Shown: positions 5,754-60,887 of the stretch, one piece after another | Numbering within the stretch: the stretch's first letter is position 1 | How the letters are laid out: the number at the start of each line of letters is the position of its first letter | DNA from: an uncultured Bacteroidota bacterium | GTDB taxonomy: Bacteria; Bacteroidota; Bacteroidia; Chitinophagales; LD1 | DNA: 64,000 nucleotides | Direction: 5' to 3' | NCBI GenBank assembly: GCA_903919075.1 | Contig: CAIXGR010000007.1 | Span: 13,537-77,536, forward strand | Position numbers and translations under genes: made by a program | Notes under the pieces: model-generated | Seen by the model: only the letters and a program-made list of their open reading frames with translations | Told to the model about the DNA's origin: nothing | Database searches by the model: none

Positions 5754-6309
5754 AGAAGTTAGATTTGGTTAAGAAATAGGTTATCGCACTTGCAAGGTAA
5801 AACAGTTTTCAGACATATTAGATCTATTAACAAATAAATTGTTGACAAATAGGTGGTTTTAAATGAAGGATGATAGTATTCGTTTTTTACTATCCTAAAC
5901 GGTTTTATTTTTTGGCATGTAATTTGATGGGTGATAATATTTTTTATTTTTCAAAAATCAATTATCTGTAAATCATGAACTTATGAAATAGTTTTGTTTT
6001 GTATATAATTCCATTAAATCTTTGATTGATTGGTATTTGTGTAAAAGAATTTACTTCTTGTTAATTTATTAGGGTAGAATAATATGTGCATAATTATAAA
6101 GAGCGCGAGTAACTACGTATCGGTTCTGAATATATTATAAGAAGAGAAGTAATAGATATCTTCCAACACAAGTTATAGCTAACTCAATTCGGTTATTATC
6201 AAAAAAACAATTTTTATCTCTAATGAATAAATATTATTTTTGTAGTATTGATTTAATTATTAACCGATAAGCGCAATTACCGTGCAAATAAGAAAAGTAA
6301 GCGCCAGAT

Positions 6310-6392
6310 ATGGTTGACAATGGTTGACACTTTTAAAGCTATAAATATTGATTATCAATGGTTCCGTTTTTAAGGTGTCAACTGTCAACCAT
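6310..6392 (-). repeat. Composite palindromic intergenic element, copy A core (inverted relative to copy C)
   Basis: The core reads ATGGTTGACAATGGTTGACAC (6310-6330), then 16 nt, ATTGATTATCAAT (6347-6359), 14 nt, and GGTGTCAACTGTCAACCAT (6374-6392). Its reverse complement aligns to 60480-60562 without indels (69/83 by hand). Confidence 0.85.
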
Positions 6393-6502
6393 GTTTCTGA
6401 TATGGTTTCTAACTTTAATAAACCTTTGGGACGAATGGATTTTTTAAGGCGTAATCAAAATCTTTTTTGCATGTTTGCCGAAGTAATGAAACCAATTTTT
6501 AG

Positions 6503-7996
6503 ATGAAAAAAATTCTTGTAGCTAACCGAGGGGAAATTGCTTTGCGGGTAATGAAAAGTGCCAAAGAGATGGGCATTAAAACTGTTGCAGTATTTTCAGA
6601 AGCTGATCGGAATAGCCCGCATGTGAGATATGCTGATGAGGCAGTTTGTATTGGGCCGGCATCATCAAAAGAATCGTATTTAAGGAGAGATAAAATTGTT
6701 GAAGTAGCGAAAATGCTAGGTGTTGAGGGTATACATCCCGGCTATGGTTTTTTGAGTGAGAATGCTGTTTTTGCAAAGTTGGTTGAAGAAAACGGCATTA
6801 CTTTTATAGGGCCCACCCCTGAAGCGATTGAAGTAATGGGTAGTAAGCTTGCGGCGAAAGAAGCTGCAAAGAAGTTTGACATACCGATGGTACCGGGGAG
6901 TGAGGGAGCTATTACCGATATACCAGAAGCCAAGTTATTAGCTGATAAAATTGGTTATCCTATTCTTATAAAGGCATCGGCAGGTGGTGGTGGTAAAGGC
7001 ATGCGTGTAGTAAATGCTGCTGCTGAATTTGAAGAGCAAATGCAGCGGGCGCAAAGCGAAGCATTGAGCGCATTTGGAGATGGAAGTGTTTTTATTGAAA
7101 AATATGTGGGTTCGCCAAAGCATATTGAAGTACAGGTATTAGGAGATAATTATGGCAACATTGTTTATTTATTTGAAAGGGAATGCTCCATTCAACGCAG
7201 GCATCAAAAAGTAATTGAAGAGGCACCAAGTTCATGTTTAACACCAGAAAAGCGCAAGGCAATTGGAGAAGCAGCGGTAAAGGTTGCCCAATCGTGCGCT
7301 TATATTGGTGCTGGTACCGTTGAGTTTTTGGTTGATGAAGCTTTGAATTTTTATTTTTTGGAAATGAATACCCGCTTGCAGGTTGAGCACCCGGTAACTG
7401 AAATGATAACCGGTATAGACCTTGTAAAAGAGCAAATAAAAGTAGCAAGAGGAGAGAAGCTGAGCTTTACACAGGATGATTTGGTAATGCGTGGCCACGC
7501 TATTGAGTTGCGCGTTTATGCTGAAGACCCTATGAATAATTTTTTGCCTGATATTGGTAGATTAGAACAATACAAGAAACCGGAAGGCCCTGGAGTGAGA
7601 GTTGATGATGGCTATGAAGAAGGAATGGATATTCCTATTTATTACGATCCTATGCTAGCTAAACTAGTAGCTTACGGTAAAGACAGGGGAGAAGCTATAG
7701 AAAGACTGGTGCGTGCCATTGACGATTATAAAATTGTAGGTGTAAAAAACACACTCCGTTTCGGGAAATTTGTTTTGCGCCATCCCGATTTCATTTCGGG
7801 CCAATTTGATACCAATTTTGTGGCTAAGAATTACAAGCCTGAATATTTGAAAGTTGAGCAAGATGATGAAATGGAAATTGCCGCTCTTATTTCATCGCAT
7901 ATATATGAAGGTAAAAAAAGTACCCCAAATGGTGTAGCTACCAAAGCAGCTGCCGGTAAAAGTAATTGGGTGAAAAATCGTAGTTCTTATCGCTAA
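6503..7996 (+). CDS. accC: Biotin carboxylase (acetyl-CoA carboxylase subunit)
   Basis: The N-terminus MKKILVANRGEIALRV, the ATP-grasp motifs (GYPILIKASAGGGGKGMRVV, EMNTRLQVEHPVTE) and HAIELRVYAEDP are all typical. No C-terminal biotinyl (AMKM) domain is present. Confidence 0.92.
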   Translation: MKKILVANRGEIALRVMKSAKEMGIKTVAVFSEADRNSPHVRYADEAVCIGPASSKESYLRRDKIVEVAKMLGVEGIHPGYGFLSENAVFAKLVEENGITFIGPTPEAIEVMGSKLAAKEAAKKFDIPMVPGSEGAITDIPEAKLLADKIGYPILIKASAGGGGKGMRVVNAAAEFEEQMQRAQSEALSAFGDGSVFIEKYVGSPKHIEVQVLGDNYGNIVYLFERECSIQRRHQKVIEEAPSSCLTPEKRKAIGEAAVKVAQSCAYIGAGTVEFLVDEALNFYFLEMNTRLQVEHPVTEMITGIDLVKEQIKVARGEKLSFTQDDLVMRGHAIELRVYAEDPMNNFLPDIGRLEQYKKPEGPGVRVDDGYEEGMDIPIYYDPMLAKLVAYGKDRGEAIERLVRAIDDYKIVGVKNTLRFGKFVLRHPDFISGQFDTNFVAKNYKPEYLKVEQDDEMEIAALISSHIYEGKKSTPNGVATKAAAGKSNWVKNRSSYR

Positions 7997-9563: not shown

Positions 9564-9901
9564 CGCAAGCCAGGCGCATTAATACAAATTGCATAAATTT
9601 ATCTTGTATTTCCTGCTTTATATCAACTAGTTATAGTGTTTTATTTAAGTCTAGTTCAACAAATCCAGTATATATTAAGAAATCATTGCGTGGGTATAAG
9701 TATACTTCTGCAGGTAGTTTAAAATATGCACAAAAATGCTATGTGTAAGTGAAAATGTGAGTTTTTAGAGGACACCTATAATCTTTTTGTTTCTATAAAC
9801 AAACAAATTTTAGCAATGAAATGTGCATAACATATTTCAACAAACATTCAGATTTAATAATTTTGATTACTATCTTTCGCTCATTAAAAACCAAAATTAT
9901 T

Positions 9902-10234
9902 ATGGCAACTAAAAAAGCAACAGCTAAAAAAGCAACAGCAAAAAAGGCACCAGCTAAAAAAGCCGCGAAGCCTGCAACAAAAAGAAAACCTAACGCAGCC
10001 TTCATGAAACCGATGAACATCGGCGCTGCATTACAGCCTATCGTAGGCAGCAAACCTCTTCCACGTACTGAGGTAACCAAGAAAGTTTGGGAATACATTA
10101 AGAAGAACAAACTTCAAGATGCAAAAGAAAGACGTAACATTAATGGTGATGCTAATCTTCAAAAAGTTTTCGGTGGCAAAAAAACCGTAAGCATGTTTGA
10201 AATGGCTAAGCACATCAACAACAATCTTTCTTAG
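9902..10234 (+). CDS. SWIB/MDM2 domain protein with Lys/Ala-rich histone-H1-like N-terminal tail
   Basis: The start is set at the ATG at 9902 (MATKKATAKKATAKKAPAKKAAKPATKRKP). The C-terminal core PLPRTEVTKKVWEYIKKNKLQD...NGDANLQKVFGGKKTVSMFEMAKHI is a SWIB/MDM2 signature. Confidence 0.85.
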   Translation: MATKKATAKKATAKKAPAKKAAKPATKRKPNAAFMKPMNIGAALQPIVGSKPLPRTEVTKKVWEYIKKNKLQDAKERRNINGDANLQKVFGGKKTVSMFEMAKHINNNLS

Positions 10235-10360: not shown

Positions 10361-10948
10361 TTATTTGGATAGACTTTTCAGTTTTGCGATGGTTGCATTT
10401 TTATCAATGCGGGCATCTTTGTTACTCTGTATCGTGTAATCAGTTATCTCAGCTTTAATTGCATAATCAAGTGCTGTCATTCCTGTTGCATCTTTTTTTG
10501 AAGCATCAGCACCTTTAGCAAGTAAGTGTTCAACTACATCTACTTTAGCATTTTGGGCGGCAAGCATTAACGCAGTGGCGCCATTCGCTGACGCTATATT
10601 TACATCAGCACCACTTTTAGTTAGTAAAGTTGTAGCCGTTATGCCGCCATAATATGCACAGGCTACCATTAAAGGCGTACGTCCTTTTGCCGATCTGGGT
10701 TCATCGGGTTTTGCTCCATTGGTGAGCAAAAGTTTTATCATAGGAATATCGTTCCACCTACACGCAACCATAAGCGGGCTGCTACCATTTTCGTCTAGCT
10801 TGTTTGGGTCAGATCCTGATTTTATAAGTTTTAAAGCCAGAGTGGTATCGTTTTTGTTTACTGCTTCTATAAGTGTTTGCGACTTAGCTGCAAAGGGCAC
10901 AAACAGGATAAGAATAATAAGGGCTATTAATGAACAATCTTTTATCAT
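10361..10948 (-). CDS. Secreted ankyrin-repeat protein
   Basis: Signal peptide (MIKDCSLIALIILILFVPFAAKSQ) followed by about 4 ANK repeats (G.TPLM.A....G......LL..GADVN-type motifs). Confidence 0.85.
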   Translation of the reverse strand: MIKDCSLIALIILILFVPFAAKSQTLIEAVNKNDTTLALKLIKSGSDPNKLDENGSSPLMVACRWNDIPMIKLLLTNGAKPDEPRSAKGRTPLMVACAYYGGITATTLLTKSGADVNIASANGATALMLAAQNAKVDVVEHLLAKGADASKKDATGMTALDYAIKAEITDYTIQSNKDARIDKNATIAKLKSLSK

Positions 10949-34145: not shown

Positions 34146-34196
34146 GTAATAATCTTGAAAGCCAAAAATACAATTTAACCCGAAATACATAAATAG

Positions 34197-34272
34197 GGTG
34201 TTAACACTTTTAAAGTTAAGCTATTAATAATCAATATTTTACTTAAAAACAGTGTTAACACCTGTGAACACC
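34197..34272 (+). repeat. Composite palindromic intergenic element, copy B core (variant arms)
   Basis: The core reads GGTGTTAACAC (34197-34207), 15 nt, ATTAATAATCAAT (34223-34235), 16 nt, then GTGTTAACACCTGTGAACACC (34252-34272). The 15/13/16 spacing is the same as in copy C. Confidence 0.7.
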
Positions 34273-34371
34273 TTTTGTTTCAATTTTAATAAAACCACCT
34301 TTTTAGGCTATCCGAAATACCGGCATCTACAATCTAAATTTAGTTCGTCCGTCATCAGTCAAATATTTGGT

Positions 34372-34379
34372 TACTTTTG
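34372..34379 (+). promoter_or_regulatory. Candidate -7 promoter box (TAnnTTTG) for yidC
   Basis: TACTTTTG lies 44 nt upstream of the ATG at 34423. This is a motif match only. Confidence 0.3.
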
Positions 34380-34422
34380 CCCGCTCAAAAGTTGAACAAG
34401 AATTGCAGTTGCAACTAATCCC

Positions 34423-51229: not shown

Positions 51230-51404
51230 AATAACTGCTTCTCTTCAATCAATTATTTAAAATTTATCAAGCATAAATATTTAATATTCTGCACGTTATT
51301 TATGTAATATTTGTATTGTAGTATATTATAAAAAAATGTTTTATAATTGCTGCTGTTGAGATTAGATGTCTGCGACTGATAAAAATCAACCTTTAACATG
51401 AGTA

Positions 51405-51700
51405 GCATCATGGCTTTGTAAGCCATATGCCAATTATCTTTGCCGTAACAATGAGTGAATGGTAAGGTTTCTGAGATAAGATATAACTAAAGTTGGGGGA
51501 TTTTGGATATGCTCTGAACTTGGGACCTTACCTTTTTTAGGTGTTATTACTATGCCTCAATGGCATTTAAAATATCCCCTTCCGAAGCTGTACTTCATTA
51601 ATCGCTGAGTCCTACACCCATCCAATGTGAATGCGGTTTGGAGGGGGACCTTACAAAAAAAACTGCCGATGCATTGAAAATGCATCGGCAGTTTTTTTTG
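51405..51700 (+). ncRNA. Candidate structured small RNA (unknown family) ending at an intrinsic terminator
   Basis: A gene-free gap of about 500 bp lies between convergent genes. It holds an 11-bp hairpin (51405-51430) and an 8-bp long-range helix GGTAAGGT (51461-68) / ACCTTACC (51525-32). The 10-mer GGGACCTTAC occurs at 51522-31 and again at 51645-54. A terminator follows at 51661-51700. The strand is inferred only from the hairpin plus T-run, and no family was recognised. Confidence 0.25.
51653..51700. terminator. Bidirectional rho-independent terminator
   Basis: AAAAAAAA, then AACTGCCGATGCATT GAAA ATGCATCGGCAGTT, then TTTTTTTG. This is a perfect 14-bp stem flanked by an A-run and a T-run. 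Confidence 0.9.
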
Positions 51701-51735
51701 TTTAATTGTCTGGTATCTACAGGTTCACGCCCAGC

Positions 51736-60328: not shown

Positions 60329-60479
60329 TTTTTTATTTGTCTTTAGTCAAACTAGAATAAACTTCCTTGCTTACGTCATCAGGTTTTTTGGGTAAAAAAT
60401 TGTCAATCCGGCCAACTGTCAACCCATCCTCATTTTCCATTCTCATAATAAATTAATTATCAATAATTTATAAAAAAAT

Positions 60480-60562
60480 ATGGTTGACAGTTGACACTCT
60501 AAAAATTGAGTCATTGATAATCAATATATTAATCAGTGAAAGTGTCAACCGTTGTCAACCAT
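60480..60562 (+). repeat. Composite palindromic intergenic element, copy C core
   Basis: The core reads ATGGTTGACAGTTGACAC (60480-97), 15 nt, ATTGATAATCAAT (60513-25), 16 nt, then GTGTCAACCGTTGTCAACCAT (60542-62). Confidence 0.85.
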
Positions 60563-60887
60563 AACTGGCTATGCGTTTTTATTTACTCTAAAATACTGCA
60601 TTACCGGTTGGCTATTAAATTCACCTTACAAAAATAAAATTTATTTTTTTGAGATAAAATTTATTATTTATATAATTAAGGATCTCAAGAGAAAGGCTAT
60701 GCCATCGCTCCACGCATCTAATTATCTGTATTCCCTTCTCTACACGAAGCGTGGAGAAGGGGTGAGTCACCGGGAGGTCGCAACTATAGCGCAACTTTAA
60801 CCGGTCCGCAAAGACTTACTAGGTTTGCTTATCCTCGTGCATTTAGCTATATTTACTATGCAAAATTTCAATGCATAAACCGGAATT

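Follow-up and report, generated by a model that had tools for sequence, protein, structure and literature searches.

An undescribed 83-bp palindromic element present in three copies within 64 kb of an uncultured Chitinophagales genome: a possible operator or architectural module

Between a susC-like gene and accC in an uncultured Chitinophagales genome lies a long composite palindrome, and its recurrence nearby raises the question of whether it serves its host as a binding site for proteins, spreads as a selfish repeat, or acts as RNA. We followed it through the whole stretch of DNA analysed (64 kb; hereafter the window), where an undescribed 83-bp palindromic element is present in three copies, A, B, and C. 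Their parts, with that of a half-unit beside copy C, are as follows.

6190-6309, minus strand: tail of copy A, homologous to the tail of copy C only
6212-6242, plus strand: promoter-like block in the tail of copy A (putative function), with TTTTATCTC at 6212-6220 and a -7 box TATTTTTG at 6235-6242
6310-6392, minus strand (canonical orientation): 83-bp palindromic core of copy A
6310-6330, minus strand: arm of copy A, two units at 10-bp phasing, GTGTCAACCATTGTCAACCAT
6347-6359, minus strand: central palindrome of copy A, ATTGATAATCAAT
6375-6392, minus strand: arm of copy A, two contiguous heptads at 7-bp phasing, ATGGTTGACAGTTGACAC
34196-34272, plus strand: core of copy B, without tail; GGGTGTTAACAC at 34196-34207, ATTAATAATCAAT at 34223-34235, GTGTTAACACCTGTGAACACC at 34252-34272
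60401-60464, plus strand: extra half-unit beside copy C; TGTCAAT at 60401-60407, TGTCAAC at 60417-60423
60452-60464, plus strand: second centre-like palindrome, in the half-unit of copy C, ATTAATTATCAAT
60480-60562, plus strand: 83-bp palindromic core of copy C; arm at 60480-60497, centre at 60513-60525, 10-bp-phased arm at 60542-60562
60563-60684, plus strand: tail of copy C, homologous to the tail of copy A
60629-60659, minus strand: promoter-like block in the tail of copy C (putative function), with TATTTTTG at 60636-60629 and TTTTATCTC at 60659-60651

Aligned without gaps, the cores of copies A and C are identical at 69 of 83 positions. With the blocks delimited solely by the self-symmetry of copy C, the symmetric blocks agree at 51 of 52 positions and the spacers at 18 of 31 (Fisher p=4.2e-6), which bears out the original prediction that conservation resides in the blocks and not in the spacers. 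The 18-bp arm ATGGTTGACAGTTGACAC and the 21-bp arm GTGTCAACCnTTGTCAACCAT each have exactly two sites in the window, those of copies A and C, for shuffle expectations of 0.03 (with up to 3 mismatches allowed) and 0.00, respectively; two arm matches were found in none of 100 shuffles. The two arms are mutually complementary except for a 3-nt bulge. The centre, an AT-rich palindrome that can also be written as ATTGATAAT-like or as ATTGATAATCAAT(AT), is identical in A and C at 13 of 13 positions. Heptads start 10 bp apart in the longer arm (6313/6323 in A and 60543/60553 in C) and 7 bp apart in the shorter one (6376/6383 and 60483/60490). Every number given in the original prediction for the 83-bp cores, their identity, the arms, the centre, and both phasings was reproduced, and the third core that it had reported was confirmed: copy B is more diverged (nhmmer E=5e-20) and is laid out as GGGTGTTAACAC-15-ATTAATAATCAAT-16-GTGTTAACACCTGTGAACACC. 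A covariance model run over the window with filters off returned these three copies and no fourth, the next match (51651-51703) being an ordinary terminator. The half-unit that adjoins copy C had gone unnoticed before.

A tail of about 110 nt is common to copies A and C only. The two tails are 75% identical over 76 nt (6195-6270 vs. 60601-60676), or at 84 of 128 positions when gapped. Because copy B shares the core alone, the polar unit of about 200 nt that had been proposed for the element is confined to A and C. The most conserved stretch of the tail, at homologous positions in both copies, is TTTTATCTC followed after 14 or 15 nt by TATTTTTG, which resembles a promoter of the Bacteroidota -33/-7 type and reads into the palindrome, toward accC in copy A and toward a TPR gene in copy C. 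The earlier reading, in which the polar tail acts on the gene in front of it, was not supported: the tail occurs only in A and C, and its putative promoter lies on the opposite strand. At copy C, a -7 box at 60820 belongs to the gene toward which the tail points, whereas susC lacks one within 300 nt. Intergenic DNA (8.1 kb) has 26 TAnnTTTG sites and coding DNA (56 kb) has 51; these boxes normally lie 18 to 68 nt before an ATG, and, judged by sequence, TAnnTTTG is the working -7 box of this genome. A sigma-70 promoter (TTGACA-N19-GATAAT) was rejected: such sites are no commoner than in shuffles, and the phylum uses TTTG/TAnnTTTG.

As originally described, copies A, B, and C all lie within divergent intergenic regions, and these are long, at 278 to 749 bp vs. 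99 to 254 bp for the other separated divergent gene pairs. All eight loci considered, in this genome and others, fall in promoter-containing intergenic DNA, five of them divergent, three tandem, and none convergent (P=0.027 for at least five of eight divergent). Their flanking genes encode a susC-like protein, accC, yidC, a small Cys-rich protein, a TPR protein, a hypothetical protein, guaA, and a TonB-dependent receptor. From arm to nearest -7 box the distance ranges from about 30 to 110 bp. Copy B has an arm directly against the -33 region of the TATTTTTG promoter of the small gene, and at locus L010, in a metagenome contig, an arm lies about 45 bp upstream of the TACTTTTG box of guaA.

Searches beyond the window support the earlier statement that this is not a described element. 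Rfam 15 gave no family at gathering score in the window and none at E<=10, the sub-threshold matches being only those of generic hairpins to miRNA precursor models, and a tRNA/tmRNA scan found none. Viral collections gave no match to the centre-plus-arm patterns, blastn against plasmids and phages returned only AT-rich noise, and a literature search by sequence words returned primers only. In the species-representative genomes, a collection without the source genome, the three-block pattern matched once (L001). A metagenome scan gave 11 loci, mostly chance matches inside genes; only L009 and L010 appear genuine, with L012 and L016 questionable. L001 and L009 belong to unrelated Bacteroidota contigs and have the same architecture and arm-to-centre spacing.

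Conservation at orthologous sites, which had been proposed as a check on function, gave a divided answer. No copy lies upstream of yidC in any of five relatives, and three of four relatives have no repeat units upstream of accC; in a related lake genome (L068; ENA ERZ19045875 scaffold_71), a version with swapped units does lie upstream of accC. Synteny with the relatives breaks exactly at copies A and B. Relatives without copies have intergenic DNA that cannot be aligned, the empty-site comparison of L068 with L070 included, and same-species contigs are identical across copy B, with 1 to 2 SNPs in 5.5 kb.

What recurs is a unit of 9 to 10 bp, TTGTnAACC or, more fully, (T)TGTnAAC(C), from which the arms are built. 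Its sequence is uniform inside each element and differs between elements. Two units at 10-bp phasing recur independently, in copies A, B, and C as well as in L068 at 21120 and 9923, where the unit is TGTAAACC and one instance lies upstream of the orthologous accC; L070 has the 10-bp-phased units TGTAACCCTTTGTAACC and GTGTACTTTTGTGTAC, and L009 has two units spaced 9 bp. Upstream of accC in L068, GTTACAAAAGGTTTACA and GTTTACAAAAGTTTACA stand all in the same orientation around TAATCGATAATTA, so the units would work there without hairpin formation. Because the 10-bp phasing recurs in L068, directly oriented at accC, we read the units as protein-binding sites and not merely as hairpin arms. The palindrome of L068 carries a 1-nt deletion in both arms (GGGTGGGTTACAC / GTGTAACCCACCC). 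One arm stands 15 to 17 bp from the centre in A, B, C, L001, L009, L010, and L068, with 16 to 26 bp for the other spacer, and five of the nine loci that have a centre fit the motif WATCAANNNNTTR, which we take to be the IHF consensus. A streptococcal FabT box, ANTTTGATTATCAAATT (PMC10138225), shares TTGATTATCAA with the centre at 11 of 11 bases, and copy A adjoins the fatty-acid synthesis gene accC. FabT, however, is a MarR-family regulator of Firmicutes, the centre also occurs beside yidC, guaA, and unrelated genes, and the flanking bases differ. In an AT-rich palindrome such a match may well have arisen by chance.

Our preferred reading, tentative at a probability of roughly 0.4, is that the element is an operator or architectural module, a platform in promoter regions on which DNA-binding proteins would dock. 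Its anatomy, its phasing, its positions, and its recurrence with swapped units are observed, and from them we infer that proteins would bind it, what kind they might be, and that they could affect expression. As a composite protein-binding module, it would present its arm units along one face of the helix (10-bp phasing) or contiguously (7 bp), flanking an AT-rich centre at a fixed 15 to 17 bp on one side, and the centre would probably be bound by a second, dimeric or DNA-bending protein. The resulting nucleoprotein complex would form in intergenic DNA that contains promoters, about 30 to 110 bp upstream of the flanking ones, and could act as a shared operator, an upstream site, or an architectural element. 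Bound at A or C, the complex could also stand in the way of the transcript from the tail promoter; alternatively, the palindrome could be transcribed there as an 83-nt hairpin. Block-wise conservation, 10-bp phasing, directly oriented units, and fixed arm-to-centre spacing favour the operator module, as do the match to the BirA half-site set out below, the centre motif, the intergenic setting, the distances to promoters, and a form that is not that of a terminator.

Several observations count against it. The units are TGTCAACCAT in A and C vs. TGTTAACACC in B within one genome, and one transcription factor with a degenerate site would not require units that are uniform within elements and different between them. 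The flanking genes have no common function, no canonical -7 box stands at a constant distance from the arms, no gene for a DNA-binding protein lies near the elements, the window has no regulator gene, and copies are missing at most orthologous positions in relatives. Boxes of the OmpR/PhoB type are two direct repeats with a 7-bp core, one helical turn apart and upstream of promoters, and the direct repeats of the element (TGTCA or GTTTACA in the core) at 10- to 11-bp phasing are like them. The earlier idea that these phased repeats are boxes for proteins gains support from the related elements in other Bacteroidota. In contrast to OmpR/PhoB boxes, however, those of the element sit inside a larger two-fold symmetric structure with a central palindrome, their placement with respect to the -33/-7 boxes varies, and no response-regulator gene is nearby.

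Because copies are absent from most orthologous sites and two lie at synteny breaks, a selfish, non-autonomous palindromic repeat of the MITE or REP/BIME type is a serious rival to the operator module, possible though on balance doubtful. The arms would then be terminal inverted repeats, bound at subterminal sites by a transposase or hairpin-specific enzyme whose gene lies elsewhere, the centre would be a bend site for a host factor, and the repeat would have spread into tolerant intergenic DNA of the lineage. An 83-bp element with terminal inverted repeats of 18 to 21 bp, three times in 64 kb and in three of the longest divergent intergenic regions, suits such an origin, as do its lineage-specific presence and the rarity of its pattern elsewhere. 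The two arms also co-vary between elements, as they should where every subfamily tracks an enzyme of its own. Correia elements (CREE/NEMIS) of Neisseria, and likewise ERIC and RUP, are MITE-like palindromic repeats; those of the Correia type are intergenic imperfect palindromes of about 100 bp with inverted ends of about 20 bp, a central IHF site, and promoter-like ends, and they form a long hairpin if transcribed. The present element is likewise an intergenic imperfect palindrome with inverted ends, an IHF-like centre, and a promoter-like tail, and the layout of Correia and BIME-1 elements, in which an IHF-like site lies between inverted ends, counts in favour of selfish origin.

The element departs from that model in its copy number, three so far, and in showing no target-site duplication at the core ends of A or C (flanks GAAAC / ATCTG in A and AAAAT / AACTG in C), although for core plus tail as the mobile unit the outer boundary is blurred for such a comparison. 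The 110-nt flank shared by A and C is one-sided, and the tail end of the 200-nt unit lacks an inverted repeat. Divergence is block-wise and not uniform, and the same units also occur outside palindromes, in direct arrays that no inverted repeats bound. No transposase or RAYT gene lies within the window, and none of the copies, a small sample, falls inside a gene or between convergent genes. REP/BIME repeats are also lineage-specific extragenic palindromes arranged as inverted pairs with a site for a bending protein between them, but REPs lie mostly after genes, whereas the present elements lie in promoter regions. By the published definition (PMC3733652), a REP is a 20- to 40-bp palindrome, one end of which bears a GTAG or CGTC tag; the cores here end in ATGG...CCAT and carry neither of these superfamily tags.

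An RNA-level role for copies A and C is unlikely. The tail promoter would give a transcript of about 60 nt followed by the 83-nt hairpin, and the product would be a small RNA of about 150 nt ended by that hairpin or a structured distal leader of accC or the TPR gene. Consistent with this, the TAnnTTTG box with TTTTATCTC forms the best-conserved stretch of the tail, the hairpins are predicted to be highly stable (dG of -26 to -39 kcal/mol, with z-scores from -5 to -8), the transcribed minus strand of copy C, and no other strand, has a U7 after the hairpin, and the paired arms change together from one element to another. Copy A, however, has no U-run after its hairpin, and neither tail nor tail promoter accompanies the elements of copy B, L001, L009, L010, and L068. 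G-U pairs favour no strand consistently (a gap of 12 kcal/mol in A, 0.6 in C, and 0.5 in B), and 27 of 31 predicted pairs are invariant in the A-C alignment, which therefore gives no covariation signal. The directly oriented arrays of L068 are unable to fold into a hairpin, and Rfam has no match. An intrinsic terminator was rejected as well: a scan found none in the region of A or C, and a real terminator of this genome has a 12-bp GC-rich stem flanked by A8/T8, unlike the element.

Improbable too is a broader proposal, that Chitinophagales carry 'iteron-palindrome' modules in which BirA-like half-sites with concerted units surround a bend site and form a portable operator or promoter cassette. 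Half-sites of a winged-helix protein would be reused in tandem and everted arrays, the units at each locus would evolve together, and the modules would be moved or rebuilt between promoter regions, sometimes with their own promoter. Arrays of iterons or heptads, such as those of the omega repressor, are bound by plasmid and phage proteins, and like them the element has short direct and inverted units, homogeneous per locus and differing between loci; in contrast to them, it is set in housekeeping DNA of the chromosome, where no rep, par, or terminase gene occurs, and has only two units per arm. An iteron-type origin or partition site was rejected, the arms having two units and not at least three and the neighbours being housekeeping genes without rep/par. 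Arrays of TGTCAACC at 10- to 11-bp phasing occur in four phage contigs (L032, L036, L044, and L059); unlike the element, they have no central palindrome. These phage arrays lie close to terminase-small-subunit-like HTH genes and lack the centre motif. Sites of the attC, dif, DnaA-box, and parS kinds were dropped because of a misfit in motif order or sequence.

That BirA, the biotin repressor, governs accC and other genes through operators of its own is highly improbable, despite the likeness of the units. The published BirA half-site is TTGTAAACC, with variants TTGTcAACC and TTGTtAACC, and the operator bioO is TTGTAAACC-N14/15-GGTTTACAA (PMC545781). The unit TTGTnAACC / GGTTnACAA is the same 9-bp half-site, including the free fifth base (A, C, or T): cgTTGTCAACC in C, caTTGTCAACC in A, TTGTAAACC in L068, and TGTTAACC in L009. 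Moreover, the element or its units lie upstream of accC, the gene of a biotin-dependent enzyme (biotin carboxylase), in both the window and L068. In bioO, however, the half-sites stand head-to-head across 14 to 15 bp, whereas those of the element are in tandem (10/7-bp phasing) or everted 44 bp apart. Head-to-head pairs (TTGTnAACC-N13..16-GGTTnACAA) with up to 2 mismatches are absent from the window and from every element-bearing locus, the sole one lying at L070 639, away from any element; allowing 3 mismatches over the same gaps adds, at or beside elements, only the pairs at 6382 and L068 9807. The canonical BirA operator was dropped for want of this spacing and orientation. The remaining flanking genes are unrelated to biotin, and the window has no bio genes.

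A neutral by-product, in which segmental duplication of A and C combined with slippage repeats in AT-rich intergenic DNA, would explain the contiguous stretch of about 200 bp common to A and C and the homogeneity of units at each locus, as slippage or gene conversion would give, but it too is highly improbable given blocks far better conserved than spacers, an architecture and spacing that recur in unrelated Bacteroidota, and shuffles that never yielded two arm matches.

Very little of the regulatory DNA of Bacteroidota has been charted beyond the Bacteroides of the gut, although for now the practical reach of the element is limited under either reading. Binding by host proteins would make the element a new operator architecture and possibly an unexpected use of a BirA-type recognition sequence; the iteron-palindrome cassette, if real, would rewire the regulation of housekeeping genes and belong to a class not described for Bacteroidota. 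Should the element instead be selfish, Chitinophagales would have a new MITE/REP-like family that marks synteny breaks and carries an outward-independent promoter, relevant both to the rearrangement of genomes and to assembly breaks in metagenomes from lakes.

The palindromic element is real and undescribed, as the original prediction held, and has no match in Rfam. Three copies of its core (two arms flanking a 13-nt centre, with spacers between) lie in the window, occupying three of its four longest divergent intergenic regions:

6310-6392 (-), copy A, between a SusC-like receptor gene and the biotin carboxylase gene accC
34196-34272 (+), copy B, with yidC on one side and a small Cys-rich ORF on the other
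60480-60562 (+), copy C, flanked by genes for a TPR protein and a hypothetical protein

The cores of A and C are reverse-complement copies of 83 bp, 69/83 identical and gap-free, as had been described. Each arm has exactly two occurrences across the window, oppositely oriented, the 18-nt arm at 6375-6392 and 60480-60497 (shuffle expectation 0.03) and the 21-nt arm at 6310-6330 and 60542-60562 (shuffle expectation 0.00), and the positions at which the heptads start bear out the proposed phasing of 10 bp in one arm and 7 bp in the other. Blocks had also been described as better conserved than spacers; with block limits set solely by the internal symmetry of copy C, 51/52 block positions are identical between A and C versus 18/31 spacer positions (Fisher p=4e-6). 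One-sided homology of ~110 nt beyond the core of A and C was likewise recovered (75% over 76 nt ungapped; 84/128 gapped). The third copy described, B, exists (GGGTGTTAACAC-15-ATTAATAATCAAT-16-GTGTTAACACCTGTGAACACC), but has only the core in common with the others and no tail. A half-unit missing from the original list adjoins copy C at 60401-60464. Searches of the 64 kb with nhmmer and a covariance model, filters off, found no other copies, the next-best match being an ordinary GC-rich terminator (51651-51703). This textbook bidirectional terminator (A8-CTGCCGATGCAT...ATGCATCGGCAG-T8) closes 500 nt of non-coding DNA separating convergent genes (51230-51735), and the 420 nt preceding it hold no ORF and no Rfam match.

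The remaining window genes are housekeeping, with no transposase or regulator gene found among them. Two others were noticed: a 137-aa protein (9821-10234, +) with a C-terminal SWIB/MDM2 domain and a Lys/Ala-rich N terminus that looks histone-H1-like and derives from 15-nt tandem repeats (9906-9963), and a 195-aa ankyrin-repeat protein (10361-10948, -). Ankyrin repeats are uncommon among free-living bacteria.

The unit that repeats, (T)TGTnAAC(C)nn, is 9-10 nt long. Units are alike inside one element, whether direct or inverted, but differ from element to element:

Copies A and C: TGTCAACCAT
Copy B: TGTTAACACC
L009, a metagenome contig: TGTTAACCAT
L068, a relative: TGTAAACCTT

Phasing of 10 bp places two units on the same helix face, the arm-to-centre distance stays within 15-17 bp on one side but ranges over 16-26 bp on the other, and direct-orientation arrays also occur. 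Together, unit uniformity, phasing, spacing and direct arrays point to protein binding, not a hairpin, as the primary constraint. We tentatively favor, at a probability of roughly 40%, a composite module that binds proteins in promoter regions and acts as an operator or architectural element. The centre matches the IHF consensus in 5/9 centre-containing loci. It also has TTGATTATCAA in common with the streptococcal FabT box (PMC10138225); both resemblances are leads only.

A selfish repeat, MITE- or REP-like, is possible though doubtful. Co-variation of the arms fits terminal repeats of transposon subfamilies and a hairpin equally well, and the inverted ends, size and lineage-specific presence recall MITEs, but a target-site duplication was not seen and decay is block-wise. 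In PMC3733652, REPs are defined as 20-40-bp palindromes tagged GTAG or CGTC, a definition that the element falls outside. The window derives from an uncultured bacterium of the Chitinophagales, and its best relatives by YidC and AccC are MAGs of the same order, assembled from lake metagenomes. No copy lies near yidC in five of these relatives (74-76% YidC identity), where the yidC promoter block is conserved downstream of copy B's position, and the accC upstream region of L067, L069 and L070 has no repeat units. When window 6393-6503 and 34273-34422 were compared with L004, L017, L019, L021 and L067-L070, the neighbours upstream of accC and yidC differed from all relatives examined while downstream synteny was retained; synteny thus breaks where copies A and B lie.

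L068 (AccC identity 88%) carries related elements, with unit TGTAAACC in place of TGTCAACC. One is palindromic (GGGTGGGTTACAC-17-ATTGATAATAAGT-25-GTGTAACCCACCCTGTAAAC, bordered by TGTAAACCTTTGTAAACC and GGGTTTACAAAATGGGTTATAA) in a divergent region adjoining a TonB-dependent receptor; upstream of accC are two 10-bp-phased pairs in one orientation around TAATCGATAATTA. In L070, TGTAACCCTTTGTAACC and GTGTACTTTTGTGTAC lie upstream of the syntenic receptor gene. A Paludibacteraceae MAG (L001) and the metagenome contigs L009 and L010 each yielded one element of the same layout in database scans. The receptor gene is preceded in both L068 and L070 by short direct repeats with 10-bp phasing, each locus with a different unit (TGTAAACC, TGTAACC, GTGTAC):

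L068, 21120-21137 and 21298-21320
L070, 20121-20145 and 20283-20305

An RNA element driven by a promoter in the A/C tail is unlikely. On both strands the core has a very stable fold (dG -26 to -39 kcal/mol, z-scores -5 to -8), as is automatic for any DNA palindrome, and no strand preference is consistent across copies. A terminator was rejected: the terminator scan was negative, and a genuine terminator of this genome looks different. The Bacteroidota -7 box TAnnTTTG is in use here (26 times in 8.1 kb intergenic versus 51 times in 56 kb coding), usually 18-68 nt ahead of the start codon. The best-conserved stretch of the tail, TTTTATCTC-14/15 nt-TATTTTTG, appears promoter-like from its sequence, on the strand reading into the palindrome:

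6212-6242 (+), copy A, 268 nt from the accC start
60659-60629 (-), copy C, 308 nt from the TPR gene start

Promoter-like boxes also lie proximal to accC and the TPR gene, the accC one being GCATGTTTG (6466-6474), kept in L067, L069 and L070. The original proposal that the tail serves the gene it faces is unsupported, because this stretch reads the opposite way and the hypothetical gene faced by tail C has its own box at 60820; copy B is tail-less. The non-canonical accC box GCA(T/A)GTTTG is retained in four genomes, not L068, and stands ~37-41 nt ahead of accC in L067, L069 and L070; in L068 a canonical TAAATTTG lies 158 nt upstream, immediately following a pair of repeat units. Between tail C and a 169-aa gene, 60684-60870 (+) is GC-richer, with an 11-bp stem (CCCUUCUCUAC/GUGGAGAAGGG), an unexceptional overall fold (z = -1.7) and no Rfam match.

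BirA operators consist of half-sites TTGTAAACC-N14/15-GGTTTACAA, with variants TTGTcAACC and TTGTtAACC (PMC545781). The element's unit is identical to such a half-site (PMC545781), and accC neighbours the element in two genomes, but a sequence scan found at the elements no two half-sites, with up to 2 mismatches, arranged head-to-head across 13-16 bp, so a BirA operator is very improbable. A neutral by-product earns equally little credence, and slightly more goes to explanations beyond these five.

Phage contigs hold dense GTTGACA/TGTCAAC arrays with 10-11-bp or 22-bp phasing, which share the TGTCAACC unit with the element but not its centre; terminase-like genes are nearby:

L031, 11474-11785
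L032, 209-660
L036, 2187-2404
L044, 221-522
L059, 3923-3983

Several are close to contig ends or adjoin genes for small HTH proteins, with a large terminase-like ORF next in line; the arrays may serve in packaging or as operators. The element itself stands out for its unusual architecture, and its BirA-type unit is intriguing.
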